In this document: positions 44,460-58,520 of the stretch, in pieces
Position numbering within the stretch: the first letter of the stretch is position 1
Layout of the letters: every line of letters starts with the position of its first letter
Assembly: GCA_026928325.1 (NCBI GenBank)
Contig: JAIXKS010000039.1
Coordinates: forward strand, 66,929 to 130,928
DNA from: Chitinophagales bacterium
GTDB lineage: Bacteria > Bacteroidota > Bacteroidia > Chitinophagales > Saprospiraceae
Reading direction: 5' to 3'
DNA length: 64,000 nt
The notes under the pieces: model-generated
What the model was told of the DNA's origin: nothing
Databases searched by the model: none
The model's input: the letters and a program-made list of their open reading frames with translations, nothing else
Made by a program: the position numbers and the translations under genes

Positions 44460-46014
44460 GTCCGAACCATATGTCCAGCTTAGAAGGATTAAGACCATTA
44501 TAACCTGCATCTACTGTTGATGCCTTCAATGTCCGAACCATATGTCCAGCTTAGAAGGATTAAGACTAGCACTATTTGTATATATAGGCTAATCCTATTA
44601 CGGTCCGAACCATATGTCCAGCTTAGAAGGATTAAGACTCAACCGCTACTGAAAATACATCTGGATTTTTAGTAGGTCCGAACCATATGTCCAGCTTAGA
44701 AGGATTAAGACTATCAATCTTAAATGTAGATAAAAAGAAATTATCTAAGTCCGAACCATATGTCCAGCTTAGAAGGATTAAGACAGGACAAAGGTAAACC
44801 TATCATTTTCTAATTGAATGGTCCGAACCATATGTCCAGCTTAGAAGGATTAAGACCAAGAGCAGAGATTAATGTTTGAAAAACTTCGGTTGGAGTGTCC
44901 GAACCATATGTCCAGCTTAGAAGGATTAAGACCCTCATATATGTTTTGTGTGATTAGGTCGTGCAAGTCCGAACCATATGTCCAGCTTAGAAGGATTAAG
45001 ACATATCAATTTTTATTGGTTTAAATTAGATGTTAAGTCCGAACCATATGTCCAGCTTAGAAGGATTAAGACTTTCTTTTTCTGTGAACTTTAGATCTTT
45101 CGTTGTTTTTGTCCGAACCATATGTCCAGCTTAGAAGGATTAAGACCAACTCGTTTCTAAACAGTAACATATTATAATTATTTGTCCGAACCATATGTCC
45201 AGCTTAGAAGGATTAAGACTTGGTCTGCCATCGCTATTCTGATTTTATTTTTTAAGTCCGAACCATATGTCCAGCTTAGAAGGATTAAGACGTTTGTGGG
45301 TTAATTACAGGGCTTTGTCCATCATAAGTCCGAACCATATGTCCAGCTTAGAAGGATTAAGACTTCTTAGCTGCTGGTGCAGCAAAAGGGTTAATAAAGT
45401 CCGAACCATATGTCCAGCTTAGAAGGATTAAGACTCTGCACTTTTAAAGTACAGACTGTAATGATTTTTAGTCCGAACCATATGTCCAGCTTAGAAGGAT
45501 TAAGACCAGCAAAAGGGTTATTATAGTCTGCACTTTTAAAGGTCCGAACCATATGTCCAGCTTAGAAGGATTAAGACACTTGAAATTCGTTGTCAGATAA
45601 AAAGTTTAGAAAATGTCCGAACCATATGTCCAGCTTAGAAGGATTAAGACACCCGTCAATAAGGTCGTAAAAGTCACCTATACTATTGTCCGAACCATAT
45701 GTCCAGCTTAGAAGGATTAAGACATCACTCTTCTTGATCGAAAGAGCAATGAACTCAAGTCCGAACCATATGTCCAGCTTAGAAGGATTAAGACTTCTAA
45801 TGATTTTAATAATATAACAATATATTCCTTAGGTCCGAACCATATGTCCAGCTTAGAAGGATTAAGACTTCTGTTTTGGTTACTGTTATATCATCTACAG
45901 TATATGTCCGAACCATATGTCCAGCTTAGAAGGATTAAGACGTTATATCGCTGGTAGATACTCTTCACCTTCACGGAGGTCCGAACCATATGTCCAGCTT
46001 AGAAGGATTTAAAA
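44460..46014 (+). CRISPR. CRISPR array: 22 repeats of 36 bp (GTCCGAACCATATGTCCAGCTTAGAAGGATTAAGAC), 21 spacers of 34-40 bp
   Basis: Repeats counted by hand; 21 are identical and the last (45979..46014) degenerates after nt 31. AT-rich leader at 44066..44459. The repeat 3' end ATTAAGAC resembles the canonical 8-nt crRNA 5' tag, so transcription is left to right. Confidence 0.97.
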
Positions 46015-53452: not shown

Positions 53453-53499
53453 GGAACTATATTTGTTTTTCATGCGTTTTACATTCAAAATTCATGCTT

Positions 53500-53751
53500 A
53501 TGCCGATCTTACAAATTCGTAATCTACCACAAAAGCTTTATGATGAGTTGAAAGCTTCAGCGGATAAATCTCGGCGGTCACTTACTCAGGAAGCGATCGT
53601 TTTACTTGAAAAGGGGCTTCAACTTTCTTCTATCAATACGACTAGCGATAAAAATCAATTGCTAAAGCGTTTATTGGAAGATGTCAATAAGCCGTCTTTT
53701 TGTAGTGAAGACGCTACTGAATGGATTAGAAATGATCGAGATAGCAGATGA
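53500..53751 (+). CDS. ribbon-helix-helix antitoxin (VapB/FitA-like)
   Basis: MPILQIRNLPQKLYDELKASADKSRRSLTQEAIVLLEKGL, an Arc/MetJ-type RHH; 4-nt overlap with the PIN gene. Confidence 0.7.
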   Translation: MPILQIRNLPQKLYDELKASADKSRRSLTQEAIVLLEKGLQLSSINTTSDKNQLLKRLLEDVNKPSFCSEDATEWIRNDRDSR

Positions 53752-54143
53752 ATATCGTTTTAGATACAAGTGCTGCTGTGCGTGTTGTTTTAGATCGAGA
53801 TATTCATCTTATTAAAATCTTACAGCAAGCTGAACACATATTTGTGCCTCATTTGTTTTTTGCAGAAGTAGGTAATGTGTTTCTAAAATATTATCAGTTT
53901 CAGAATATGCATCCAGAAGCTTGTAAATTGTATATGATGCAATGTCGGCAGCTCATTACTGATGTCGTAGATGAATACACTTTTAATGAAGAAGTGTTTG
54001 ATATAGCGACTAAAAATCAGTTGAGTTTTTATGATGCAATATACTTGGCTATGGCAAAAAAGTTGGCAGCTAATCTTCTTACCGAAGATAAAAAATTGAA
54101 CGATGTTGCATCAAAACTTGGTTTAGTAGCCAAGGAGGTTTAA
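53748..54143 (+). CDS. vapC: PIN-domain toxin VapC
   Basis: 131 aa; IVLDTSA (first acidic residue), FAEVGNV, SFYDAIYLAMA, LLTEDKKL. Confidence 0.85.
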   Translation: MNIVLDTSAAVRVVLDRDIHLIKILQQAEHIFVPHLFFAEVGNVFLKYYQFQNMHPEACKLYMMQCRQLITDVVDEYTFNEEVFDIATKNQLSFYDAIYLAMAKKLAANLLTEDKKLNDVASKLGLVAKEV

Positions 54144-54190: not shown

Positions 54191-55018
54191 ATGAAAATTT
54201 TATTAACAAATCTCGGTAATCGAAACATCACTTTTCAAGGCAAAACGTATAATGAATGGGATATAAGCAATCAAAATCACAAGCATTTTGTCAATTTTGC
54301 TAATTGGACTAAAAAGCTCAATGATGATTTTGAGAAAGAAAAGGCTTTTTTAGATATTAATATCATCAATCCTATTATCAATCAAAAGGAAAATTATGAT
54401 TATATCGTACTCTATTACACCGACCAAAGTGATTATGAGACAAGAACAGATCAAGATACAATTCATGAAGCTGCTATCATTAAAAGAATACTGATTGACC
54501 GATATGAGTATATAGAAGATAGAATCATAACTATCGCTGTAAAATCAAAAGTCATAGATAATGGAGGATTACTTAAATTTTATAGATCTGAATTGACACG
54601 CATTAAAAAGAAGTATGATGCTCCATTTATCACTATTTGTGATGCTGGAGGAACAGCTCAACAAAAAATGGCATTAAAAGTCATCGCAGAATATGTATTT
54701 GATGCGAGCCAATATGAAATCTTGTATGTCGAAAAGAACTCATTGATTACGGATGTCAATGTGAATGAATATAGAAAAGTGATAAATTCAGAGCAGGCTA
54801 TTAGTTTGATAAAACATGGTGAATTTGGAGCTGCCGCAGAGCTTTTGGATTATAAGGAAATACTTAATTTTCAAAAAGCCCAGAAATATGATTGGAAAGG
54901 GAAGGTTATGGCTCATGTTATTTATAGGTTTAATCAAAATAAGAATGAGGCAAAACATATTTTAGGAAATTTGCAAGTTTCTAACGAACTATTGAAAAAT
55001 TATATGGCGGATTCAAGT
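54191..55018 (+). pseudogene. csm6: csm6-type CARF-HEPN effector, 5' fragment (CARF domain), truncated by IS insertion
   Basis: Rossmann-like MKILLTNLGNRN start and CARF loop ICDAGGTAQQKMAL. The frame runs 11 codons into the IS and stops. Confidence 0.75.
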
Positions 55019-55993
55019 CATAAATGCAACTTTTCCGTCATTATTAATTAAATGCAAATGTACTTGATTTGGAGATAAAAATCCAAATCTTTTTCTTGGT
55101 CTATTGTTTAGTTTATCTTCTACATATTCGATATCATCATTTGTGATTAAATTAAAGTCGTAATTCTTTGGGAAATACTGTCTTACCAACCCATTAAAGT
55201 TTTCATTTGCTCCTCTTTCCCAACTATGATAAGGTCTTGCGAAGAAATAATCTATCTCCAATTCTGTTGCGATTTCTTTGTGTAAAGCAAATTCTTTTCC
55301 ATTATCGGAGGTAATGGTTTTCAAAAAGGACTTCCATTCTGTAAGGATTTCAATTGCCTTTTGCTTGGTCTCTTCCGATGACTTTGACTCTAATAATGCC
55401 ATTTTTGCTTTTCCTGTTACCCTGTCATTTGCCGTCAATATTGCCCTTTTGTGATTTTTCCCAATTACTAAATCTATTTCCACATCTCCTATTCTGACTT
55501 TTTCTTCTACTATTTTAGGTCGATTTTCAATACTTACTTTATCAGGAATTTGCCCCCGTTTATCCTTTGAAGCTCCTCTTTTACGGTATCTTTTGCCCTT
55601 TGTCCGCAAGTGTGTGTAAAGATTGCCGCCCTGTCTTTTGTCTGACCAAATATGTTGGTAAATTCGCTCTATTGACACGCAATCGTCTCCTTGAAGTTTA
55701 GAAAATCCTACGACTTGCTCCGGACTGTAATCTTGTCGGAGTAATTCTTCTACATTTTCCTGAATTTCAGCGGTAAATCTGATTTTCTTCTTTTTTGTTT
55801 TATGCCTGTTAGCACATTTTCTTTCCGCCAATTCGGCTTTGTACTTACCACTTCTTTGGTCACAATTCCTTTTCAGTTCTCTACTCACAACTGACTTATC
55901 CCGATTAATTCTTTTAGCTATTTCACTTTGTGAAAAACCTTCTTCTTTTAATACTTGAATTGTGTATCTTTGTGCTACGGTTAAATGTCCCAT
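55013..55993 (-). CDS. IS30-family DDE transposase
   Basis: 326 aa; N-terminal HTH (GFSQSEIAKRINRDKSVVSRELKRN), DDE region ...DLVIG...TSDNGKEF...ERGANENFNGLVRQYFPK. The stop codon lies in the left TCAAGT repeat. Confidence 0.9.
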   Translation of the reverse strand: MGHLTVAQRYTIQVLKEEGFSQSEIAKRINRDKSVVSRELKRNCDQRSGKYKAELAERKCANRHKTKKKKIRFTAEIQENVEELLRQDYSPEQVVGFSKLQGDDCVSIERIYQHIWSDKRQGGNLYTHLRTKGKRYRKRGASKDKRGQIPDKVSIENRPKIVEEKVRIGDVEIDLVIGKNHKRAILTANDRVTGKAKMALLESKSSEETKQKAIEILTEWKSFLKTITSDNGKEFALHKEIATELEIDYFFARPYHSWERGANENFNGLVRQYFPKNYDFNLITNDDIEYVEDKLNNRPRKRFGFLSPNQVHLHLINNDGKVAFMT

Positions 55994-56138
55994 TTATTGC
56001 GAATTTTGGACGAGGAGCAAAATGAGGAAATTTTACCATTCAGAAAAGGAGAGGAGAGTTTTTCTCTTCTCTTTTCTGAAAAAAATTATCCCTTATTTCT
56101 TTCCTACCAAAAGTTGCATTTATTAGTTGAACTCAAGT
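55013..56138 (-). mobile_element. IS30-family insertion sequence (coordinates include both flanking TCAAGT direct repeats)
   Basis: Inverted repeats ATAAATGCAACTTTT (55020..55034) and AAAAGTTGCATTTAT (56109..56123); TCAAGT at 55013..55018 and 56133..56138; single transposase ORF. Confidence 0.85.
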
Positions 56139-56750
56139 ATCCATGAAAATGCTTTTTCAAATAATACAGAATTGGAGGAGATGTTTGGAAGTGATTGGAT
56201 TGATATCACAGAAAAACTCTATAAAAGTATATTTTATTACAATCGTAAAAATTTTAGTCTATCGATACTTTCATTTTCTCAATTTTATGAATATTTCTTA
56301 GAGAAAATTATCCCAGTGATTTTACCTATCGAAATTTATGGAAAGACTAATGCCCAAAATGCTGAACAATATTTTAACTTTAATGGCCTTTTTGAAGAAT
56401 ATTATGCTGATTATTTACGGAAAAGACCCGAATTTAAGCCGAAAATAGAGAGTGTCAATTCTGGAATAATGGTTGTTAAAGCTTTGACAAAAGGTTCTGC
56501 TAAAGACTTTACAAAGATGATTTCTCCGTATATTGATTTTACAGATGATTGTATTTACGGGAAAGCTTTACTTAATGTAACTAGAAACCAAATTGCACAT
56601 CAAGGTAAGTTTATTTCAGAAAGTGATATTTCAAAGAAGCTGAGTTATTATCCGAATTTATTAAGTCGTACAGCTGAGATTTTTCAGTTGACTAGGGCTG
56701 ATTTGTTTAGCGATCTTGGAGATTTGTTAGAAAACAATTTAAGGAATTGA
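56133..56750 (+). pseudogene. csm6: csm6-type CARF-HEPN effector, 3' fragment (HEPN domain)
   Basis: HEPN R-x4-H motif in LLNVTRNQIAHQG. Reading frame is continuous with 54191..55018 once 55019..56138 is removed. Confidence 0.75.
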
Positions 56751-56753
56751 CTT

Positions 56754-58520
56754 ATGGCTGTTCTCCTTGGCATAACAGATTCCAAAGACATTACATTAGT
56801 TCAAGCAATATTGCTTTTAAAAAGTAAAGGAATAGTAATTGATAATGTTAAATATATTAGGACTGGAGGACTAGAAATTGATCGTAAGGCTGAAATGTTT
56901 TACAATAACTTTAAAATCAATTTTGTAGTTTCTTCACTTCCTCAAGGAGGCAAATTACAAAAAGAGGATGATTACCTTGTACAAGAAGATGAGTTGTTTA
57001 AATGGTATTTAGAATCAACTCATGGCTTCGATAAAATATATGTTTTTATTGGTGGAGGGCATAAGCTGCATTCATTGGCCTTGCAAAAATGTGCATTTTT
57101 ATTTGGAGCTGAAGAGGTTTTCCACATGTTTATAGATGTTCCTAGAGAACATGAGCCTAAATCAATTTCCGATATCGAAATTGCTATTAAAAACAATCAG
57201 ATTCTTTATGCGAACATTGGTAAGCATTTGGCTTGGCCGGCTATAAAAAAATTGGTTCAACAAAATATCACAGCACCTAATCTAATAAGGGAAGTTATTG
57301 GAATAATCGGCAGTCGTGCAGTGTCACAAGTTAATGAATTGCCATTTGAATCTTTACAGTTGTTACCAGCTATGGCAATGCAATGGCTACAAGGTAGGTT
57401 AGTGGAGCGTGATTATGATTTTATTAAAATGCTACCTAAAGTAGAGTTGCATTGTCATCTTGGTGGGTTTGCTTCTGACGGAGATGCTCTAGATATCGTT
57501 AGAGCAAGCTATGAAGGGAATATTCCGTTACGAGAAAAGCATGTTATTTCGTATCCAGAGAATTGGCCTCTTCCTAAAAAGCCCATTGAATTAGACAAAT
57601 ATATGAATTTAGGTGATAACACTGGATCTTATATTCTACATAATAAAGGATGCCTTGAAAAACAAATTGAACTTTTATACAGTCATTTTTTAGAACAAAA
57701 CATTGGCTATGCAGAAGTTAGATGTTCTCCTTATAATTATGCTAGTGATAAATATTCCGGATTTGAAATTGTACAAATCATTATTGATAAGTTTAATGAG
57801 CTCATGGACCTTGCTAAAGAACATGAATTTTGGTGTCATGTCAATTTATTAATTATTGCTACCCGGACAGACCTAAAAAATACGCAAAAAATTCAAAATC
57901 ATTTAGAGTTGGCTACTGTAGCAGAATCTAAAAGTAGTACTAAGGGATTGTGTAAAATTGTTGGCGTTGATTTAGCAGGCTTTGAGCATCCTTCGACAAG
58001 GGCATCCTACTATACCAATCTTTTTGATCCAATCCATAGAAAGGGAATTGCTTTAACGATCCATGCAGGTGAGAATGATGAATCAGAGGCTATTTGGGAT
58101 GCCGTATTTAGATTGAATACGAGAAGGATTGGTCATGGACTACACCTTTATCAAGATGCTAATCTTTTAAAGTCAGTCATAAATCGAGGAATCGGCGTTG
58201 AAATGTGTCCCTACGCCAATTATCAAATCAAAGGATACGCTCCTATGGAAAATCAAAGCAAAGTTTATCCTTTACTTGATTATTTGAATCAAGGAGCTCA
58301 AGTTACTGTAAATACTGATAATATAGGTATAAGTTCAGCATCTCTCACAGATAATATAATCCTTTTGTCGAAATTGAACCCAGATATTACTAGAATTCAG
58401 ATATTGCAATTGGTTAGAAATGGAATCAACCAAGCATTTATTGATGTCAGTTTGCGTAATAAATTTATCGAAATTTATAATGAACGAATTTTTAAGTTGA
58501 TTCTAGAATTTACGCTATAA
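56754..58520 (+). CDS. cad1: CARF domain-adenosine deaminase fusion (Cad1-type CRISPR ancillary effector)
   Basis: 588 aa. The N-terminal ~215 aa are Rossmann-like with the loop VFIGGGHKLHSLAL. The C-terminal deaminase has VELHCHLGG, GVDLAGFE, LTIHAGE, RIGHGLHL, EMCPYANY, VNTDN. Confidence 0.85.
   Translation: MAVLLGITDSKDITLVQAILLLKSKGIVIDNVKYIRTGGLEIDRKAEMFYNNFKINFVVSSLPQGGKLQKEDDYLVQEDELFKWYLESTHGFDKIYVFIGGGHKLHSLALQKCAFLFGAEEVFHMFIDVPREHEPKSISDIEIAIKNNQILYANIGKHLAWPAIKKLVQQNITAPNLIREVIGIIGSRAVSQVNELPFESLQLLPAMAMQWLQGRLVERDYDFIKMLPKVELHCHLGGFASDGDALDIVRASYEGNIPLREKHVISYPENWPLPKKPIELDKYMNLGDNTGSYILHNKGCLEKQIELLYSHFLEQNIGYAEVRCSPYNYASDKYSGFEIVQIIIDKFNELMDLAKEHEFWCHVNLLIIATRTDLKNTQKIQNHLELATVAESKSSTKGLCKIVGVDLAGFEHPSTRASYYTNLFDPIHRKGIALTIHAGENDESEAIWDAVFRLNTRRIGHGLHLYQDANLLKSVINRGIGVEMCPYANYQIKGYAPMENQSKVYPLLDYLNQGAQVTVNTDNIGISSASLTDNIILLSKLNPDITRIQILQLVRNGINQAFIDVSLRNKFIEIYNERIFKLILEFTL

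Follow-up and report, generated by a model that had tools for sequence, protein, structure and literature searches.

The 64,000-nucleotide stretch of DNA analysed here (the window, hereafter) comes from a Chitinophagales bacterium of the Saprospiraceae (GenBank assembly GCA_026928325.1, contig JAIXKS010000039.1) and corresponds to C17:66929-130928 of the source genome, G000, a draft of 3.72 Mb in 74 contigs. It carries a complete type III-A CRISPR locus, in which a gene for a predicted CARF-HEPN effector of the Csm6/Csx1 type is divided into two fragments. In all probability, a 1132-bp insertion sequence (IS) of the IS30 family, of which the genome holds about 12-14 identical copies, transposed recently into codon 272 of this 474-codon csm6/csx1-type gene and duplicated the triplet TAT. 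A first-pass annotation, made from the letters of the DNA alone, had already described a CARF-HEPN gene split by an IS30-family element. This description is borne out, as the halves align to single full-length members of one family, while the anatomy that it gave to the element is replaced by the one set out below.

Ends and family of the inserted element

The ends of the element were defined by orienting seven full copies, the one in csm6 and six others recovered by a DNA search of its own genome. All seven are 100% identical over exactly the span 55006-56137 (transposase on the minus strand); divergence starts immediately outside it, and the flanks are unrelated. One of the seven copies is itself interrupted. 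Such a search had been proposed in the first-pass annotation, and the six additional full copies fix both the true ends and the length of the target duplication. The terminal inverted repeats (IRs), placed by seven copies with different flanks, are 29 bp long and imperfect: the repeat at the transposase 3′ end (IRR, 55006-55034, GGCGGATTCAAGTCATAAATGCAACTTTT) agrees at 22 of 29 positions with the reverse complement of the repeat at the transposase 5′ end (IRL, 56109-56137), which ends in AAAAGTTGCATTTATTAGTTGAACTCAAG. The 15-bp repeat ATAAATGCAACTTTT that had been taken for the complete IRs is indeed present, at 55020-55034 and 56109-56123, as the perfect core of the longer ones. A perfect 3-bp direct repeat flanks five of the seven full copies (TAT for the copy in csm6; TAT, TAT, ACC and GGT for the others), and a pair of copies at contig ends also has CAG in common. 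From this comparison of the flanks of all copies, the target duplication at csm6 consists of the TAT at 55003-55005 on the left and the TAT at 56138-56140 on the right.

The earlier anatomy had the element running from 55019 to 56132, with 15-bp IRs, a 6-bp TCAAGT target duplication and a transposase stop codon contributed by the target DNA. TCAAGT does stand on both sides, at 55013-55018 and 56133-56138, and deleting 55019-56138 restores an open frame as well. However, the left hexamer is IS positions 8-13, wholly internal to the element and part of IRR, whereas the right one is made up of the last five bases of the IS and the first base of the duplication. In every other copy, too, GGCGGATTCAAGTC... 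forms one end and ...GAACTCAAG the opposite one, and the flanks beside them are unrelated. TCAAGT is thus IS sequence and not a duplication, because every copy has it beside flanks that differ. This is one of the outcomes by which the first-pass annotation had said its reading would be refuted. The transposase stop codon TGA (complement of 55013-55015) also lies within IRR, at IS positions 8-10, and is found in every copy. The 6-bp duplication and the stop codon in target DNA were both rejected on these grounds. The restored frame survives this revision but its length does not: the gene has 474 codons rather than 479, since the longer version carries MADSS, a five-residue insertion found in none of 22 homologs (see below), and the 474-aa version has exactly the length of the closest ortholog. 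We consider that there is next to no chance of the older anatomy being correct. In addition, a 98%-identical variant of the IS in an unrelated wastewater metagenome (X15) occupies a different site and has the same end bases.

The transposase is a 326-aa ORF (open reading frame) on the minus strand at 55013-55993, as first noted. Scored with the NCBIfam IS30 equivalog NF033563, it reaches 279.7 bits (cutoff 80, E = 2.9e-83), and the alignment takes in the entire profile (positions 1-267 of 267). Its N-terminal helix-turn-helix matches Pfam HTH_38 above the cutoff (54.2 bits), whereas the rve core scores 26.5 bits, under its cutoff of 32.6. The catalytic triad is formed by D174, D230 and E264; between the second aspartate and the glutamate lie 33 residues, and about 33 is the usual number in IS30-family transposases. 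The length of the element, the length of its IRs and the 3-bp duplication are likewise those expected of the IS30 family. Among known elements, it most resembles the IS4351 group of Bacteroidota (and also ISApl1 and IS30 itself), with which it shares a single DDE transposase with an N-terminal helix-turn-helix and the D..D(33)E arrangement, a length of about 1.1 kb, 29-bp imperfect IRs, a 3-bp duplication, AT-rich targets and a transposase ORF that terminates within an IR. It differs from that group in its transposase, which is 51% identical to the Riemerella protein annotated as "IS30-like element IS4351 family". The nearest transposase in a plasmid collection, an IS30-family protein from Empedobacter, is 57% identical, and in 24 congeneric species the nearest IS DNA is 72-81% identical and consists of fragments only. 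Since the nearest relatives are this distant, the element is an unnamed IS of the IS30 family.

IS30-family members have been shown to move by copy-out-paste-in, and for ISApl1 a 2-bp duplication is given as typical (PMC5821093). By analogy with these characterised members, the present IS would have been brought in by copy-out-paste-in transposition, its mobility being deduced from the identity of its copies. The assembly holds 11 left and 12 right IS ends, many of them at contig termini, and in metagenomes the depth of the IS is 13-14 times that of its flanks (333.8/24 and 112.3/8.8); the copy number in the genome is thus about 12-14. In the interrupted copy (L007, G000 C2:3244-5649, duplication GGT), about 45 bp precede a 1269-bp element coding for an IS5-family transposase (NF033581, 282 bits), which makes this a nested IS. 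A match to the Bacteroidota-type promoter motif, TTTG-N21-TAnnTTTG, lies within the csm6 copy near the transposase 3′ end (55055-55087, minus strand) and faces outward. If active, it may give rise to antisense RNA over the CARF fragment and csm5, but it is one of nine matches in the window against 4.7 expected and may be due to chance.

Identity of the interrupted gene

The 5′ fragment of the gene, at 54191-55005 on the plus strand, comprises codons 1-271 and two further nucleotides, and encodes the CARF domain and the first linker helices. Its ORF (54191-55051, 286 aa), which contains ICDAGGTAQQKMAL as first described, runs on into the IS and gains 15 IS-encoded residues (MADSSHKCNFSVIIN) before the stop codon at 55049-55051. 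The 3′ fragment, at 56139-56750 on the plus strand, comprises codons 272-474 and the stop codon, and encodes the helical region and the HEPN domain. The corresponding ORF (56127-56750, 207 aa) contains the TRNQIAH that had been pointed out, and is opened by a TTG at 56127 that belongs to IRL, the left IR of the IS. Removal of 55006-56140, i.e. the IS plus one TAT, yields the empty site and a 474-codon ORF with the junction ...ELLKNY-IHENAF....

We searched the rejoined 474-aa protein against a set of 5.8 billion proteins and retrieved 22 full-length homologs of 460-492 aa with about 100% coverage. The alignment to these 22 has no gap at the junction. The best homolog, 64% identical, is exactly 474 aa long, and at the DNA level the rejoined gene and its ortholog, 1425 nt each, align with zero gaps. 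The two halves are evidently one gene. The IS30-family element splits it in codon 272, at a point where helix 266-272 comes to an end in the linker region that connects CARF to HEPN. Among the six uninterrupted full copies of the IS, the copy in csm6 is alone in lying in the middle of a long ORF.

Several observations point to the Csm6/Csx1 family. In PADLOC, the rejoined protein matches Csx1 (PDLC01509, 1.7e-22), the Csx1/Csm6 CARF+HEPN profile (PDLC01031, 1e-18, residues 1-468) and CARF_m7 (8.6e-16). The CARF motif C150-DAGGT-x-QQK159, invariant among the homologs, is kept, as is the HEPN motif R420-N-Q-I-A-H425 (R-x4-H), of which R420, N421, A424 and H425 are invariant in 23 sequences (the 22 homologs and the rejoined protein). 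The AlphaFold2 model of the 64%-identical ortholog has a mean pLDDT (predicted local distance difference test) of 89.6; in it, residues 1-186 form a Rossmann-like beta/alpha core, the region after this core consists of helices only, and the R-x4-H motif lies in helix 416-426. When this model was compared with the PDB using Foldseek, the top matches were all Csm6/Csx1 proteins (6TUG, 8JBB/8JH1/5FSH, 8PE3 and 8Y7G), with E values down to 3e-7 and a probability of 1.0, at TM-scores of only 0.3-0.44 and identities of 11-14%. The ortholog's predicted fold matches EiCsm6 (6TUG), TtCsm6 (5FSH/8JBB), StCsm6′ (8PE3) and Csx1-Crn2 (8Y7G) first. Like these proteins, the rejoined one has CARF at its N terminus and HEPN with R-x4-H at its C terminus, joined by a helical linker, and its gene comes right after csm5 in a type III-A operon (apart from a small gene pair described below). 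It differs from the solved Csm6 proteins in its identity of 11-14%, in matching no Pfam or NCBIfam Csm6/Csx1 model and in that the present copy is interrupted. Taken together, motifs, profiles and predicted fold identify the gene as coding for a divergent CARF-HEPN effector of the Csm6/Csx1 family. By the same token, its product is predicted to be an RNase that is activated by cyclic oligoadenylate (cOA) and cleaves single-stranded RNA. The subfamily is found mainly in metagenome-assembled genomes (MAGs) of Bacteroidota, including Saprospiraceae, Spirosomataceae and others.

Authenticity and age of the insertion

An IS in many copies may be wrongly threaded between two contigs during assembly, in which case the real gene could be intact or otherwise arranged. 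The element exceeds short-read length, it breaks many contigs (11-12 ends, many at contig termini) and the genome is a 74-contig draft, all of which would favour such an artefact. Against it, the flanks correspond exactly to the halves of a single gene and bear matching TAT copies, and their depths are equal (24 on the left, 22.6 on the right). Furthermore, eight metagenome runs were compared with the locus, and in the two that cover the junction (X1 and X2, both from wastewater) contigs that start in the gene continue past 55005/55006 into the IS, with the depth of the flank; one 9-kb contig enters the IS from the gene and goes on for 25 nt with no branch. An intact gene would yield an empty-site contig, and no contig of the eight runs, of which X1 and X2 alone cover the junction, links 55005 to 56141. 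Because the TAT duplication matches and the flanks are exactly collinear with one gene, we regard a mis-join as very unlikely.

The insertion is, on the evidence of the sequence, a recent one, because the IS copies are identical, neither half has acquired an extra stop codon or a frameshift, and 36 of the 37 positions that never vary in the 22 homologs are unchanged, S77T being the only substitution. The first-pass annotation, in which the intact frames had suggested a recent event, is upheld in this respect. Its proposal to look for an uninterrupted csm6 in related strains was answered in part: no homolog of the gene was found in 24 genomes of the same genus and 16 of the same order, and the closest uninterrupted ortholog is 64% identical. 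Apart from the window's own truncated ORF, the 5.8-billion-protein set contains no cluster of higher identity than this. Since the gene has no homolog in the 24 congeneric species, the locus is an accessory island.

A number of points weigh against the reading of a recent insertion into a csm6/csx1-type gene. Pfam (E ≤ 0.01) and NCBIfam (E ≤ 0.1), searched with both halves and with the rejoined protein, and a PDB sequence profile search (E ≤ 1) gave no match; because these curated searches are silent, the assignment to Csm6 rests on the PADLOC profiles, the motifs and the ortholog's predicted fold. Two of the seven full IS copies lack a 3-bp duplication. X1 and X2 are probably the source of the assembly and do not amount to independent support, and Logan contigs lose rare variants, so that a minority allele without the IS may still exist. 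Finally, the loss of function, the polarity on the downstream gene cad1 and the fate of the fragments, discussed below, are all inferred. As to the two copies without a duplication (L004, G000 C74:35837-36968, and L005, C60:18907-20038), their flanking triplets are AAA/ACT and TAT/AAT, respectively. Such mismatches suggest recombination between IS copies, or adjacent deletions, after insertion.

The type III-A locus and its probable remaining effector

The type III-A locus begins with a CRISPR array of 22 repeats (44460-46014), followed by cas6, cas10, csm2, csm3, csm4, csm5, a toxin-antitoxin (TA) pair and csm6 with its IS, and continues with cad1, a divergent gene for a WYL regulator, a protease gene and cas1-primpol-cas2. 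cas6, cas10 and csm2-5 thus lie directly upstream of csm6, and cas10, which is taken to be cyclase-competent, encodes an HD motif at residue 16 and GGDD at residue 676. cad1 (56754-58520, plus strand, 588 aa) starts 4 nt after the csm6 stop codon and encodes a CARF-adenosine deaminase, as judged from Pfam A_deaminase (4e-40) and PADLOC CARF5--CARF_ADA (2e-125). Cad1 is the only intact CARF effector seen in the window and is likely to be the remaining cOA effector.

A similar gene order is found at the closest orthologous locus (L027), where csm5, a ribbon-helix-helix (RHH)/toxin pair, csm6, cad1 (1 nt apart), the WYL gene and cas1 follow each other. The order csm5-(TA)-csm6-cad1 recurs in L027, L029 and L030, and the pairing of csm6 with cad1 recurs in the Bacteroidota MAGs L029, L030, L032 and L033. 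Linkage of csm6 homologs to a type III locus is seen in L027, L029 and L032 as well. The TA pair in the window (53494-54143) consists of an RHH (FitA-like) antitoxin and a PIN toxin, and RHH + PemK occupy the same slot in L027; different TA modules thus share this position. A second CRISPR array of 35 repeats, with the same 36-bp repeat, lies downstream of cas2 (G000 C17:132862-135358), about 1.9-4.4 kb past the 3′ end of the window. Its spacer 20 equals spacer 16 of the window array (45578-45614) over 35 nt, and its spacer 4 has 20 nt in common with spacer 1 of the window array (44496-44530). The two arrays have therefore sampled the same or overlapping protospacers.

The co-occurrence and cooperation of CAAD/Cad1 with a Csx1 RNase has been described, and the pairs are reported to be cross-regulated, both effectors being able to degrade cA4 (PMC12993439). 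The CAAD/Cad1+Csx1 type III loci (Thermoanaerobaculum aquaticum, PMC12993439; Bacteroidales Cad1, PMC11645235) likewise pair a gene for a CARF-HEPN RNase with an adjoining one for a CARF-adenosine deaminase. In contrast to those loci, the present one is of type III-A rather than III-B, its RNase gene precedes cad1, and an IS has disabled the RNase partner.

The gene is broken. The insertion parts the CARF sensor (residues 1-271 and the 15-residue tail) from the HEPN nuclease (residues 272-474), and because the IS separates the two halves, the full-length allosteric RNase can no longer be produced. We infer from this arrangement that RNase activity is lost. The remainder of the locus is intact in sequence (two arrays, cas6, cas10, csm2-5, cad1, WYL and cas1-primpol-cas2), and the system would probably still signal, with Cad1 as its only effector. 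The IS is in antisense orientation to the operon and separates cad1 from the upstream promoters; some polarity on cad1 is plausible. A search for RNA runs that contain the locus found none. Two terminator-like hairpins were found on the plus strand of the IS (55066-55089 and 56047-56070); the terminator scan as a whole gave three against 1.7 expected, which is not over chance. A scan for the sigma-70 consensus remained at chance level relative to the shuffled expectation. None of the nine matches to the Bacteroidota-type -33/-7 motif in the window (4.7 expected) is directed at cad1, and over the whole window this motif has no plus-strand match in or just upstream of the 3′ fragment. None of the 21 spacers of the window array and 34 of the second array targets the genome, in which the sole long spacer matches are those between the two arrays. 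Autoimmunity as a selective reason for the knockout was accordingly rejected.

The fragments themselves might still be of use to the cell. The CARF part could, on its own, act on cOA as a sponge or as a ring nuclease. In addition or instead, translation could start at the TTG inside the IS (56127) or at the ATG at 56181 and yield a protein with HEPN only. The response would thereby be retuned toward Cad1, or an unregulated RNase would arise. The reported cross-regulation and cA4 degradation by both members of CAAD/Cad1-Csx1 pairs (PMC12993439) would suit such a reading. Both fragments also remain open over long stretches (286 and 207 aa) and have lost no catalytic or ligand motif, and in the model the break falls where helix 266-272 ends, within the linker that joins the CARF fold to the HEPN helices. 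However, open frames are to be expected just after any recent insertion, and no promoter is evident for the 3′ fragment, given the sigma-70 and Bacteroidota-type scans above. Moreover, the HEPN sites of Csm6/Csx1 proteins form across a dimer that the CARF domains help organise. A functional split of this kind has, in our estimate, a slim chance. We find it just as improbable that the split was selected to relieve Csm6 toxicity and rewired the locus to Cad1 only, with a free CARF fragment damping the signal by binding or degrading cOA and, possibly, a HEPN protein devoid of CARF made from the TTG.

Instead, the split is best regarded as real, recent and ordinary: an IS has knocked out a csm6/csx1-type gene, in most respects a routine case of IS expansion striking an accessory defence gene. 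For annotation, it means that two ORFs that would be labelled "hypothetical" are one broken csm6/csx1 gene, and that this gene belongs to a CARF-HEPN subfamily of Bacteroidota which escapes both Pfam and NCBIfam. An unnamed and presumably active IS30-family element now has its exact ends, IRs and duplication length defined. Finally, the locus represents a natural knockout of the RNase partner in a type III locus with Csm6 and Cad1 as dual effectors, and could as such serve studies of the cooperation between CAAD/Cad1 and Csx1/Csm6.

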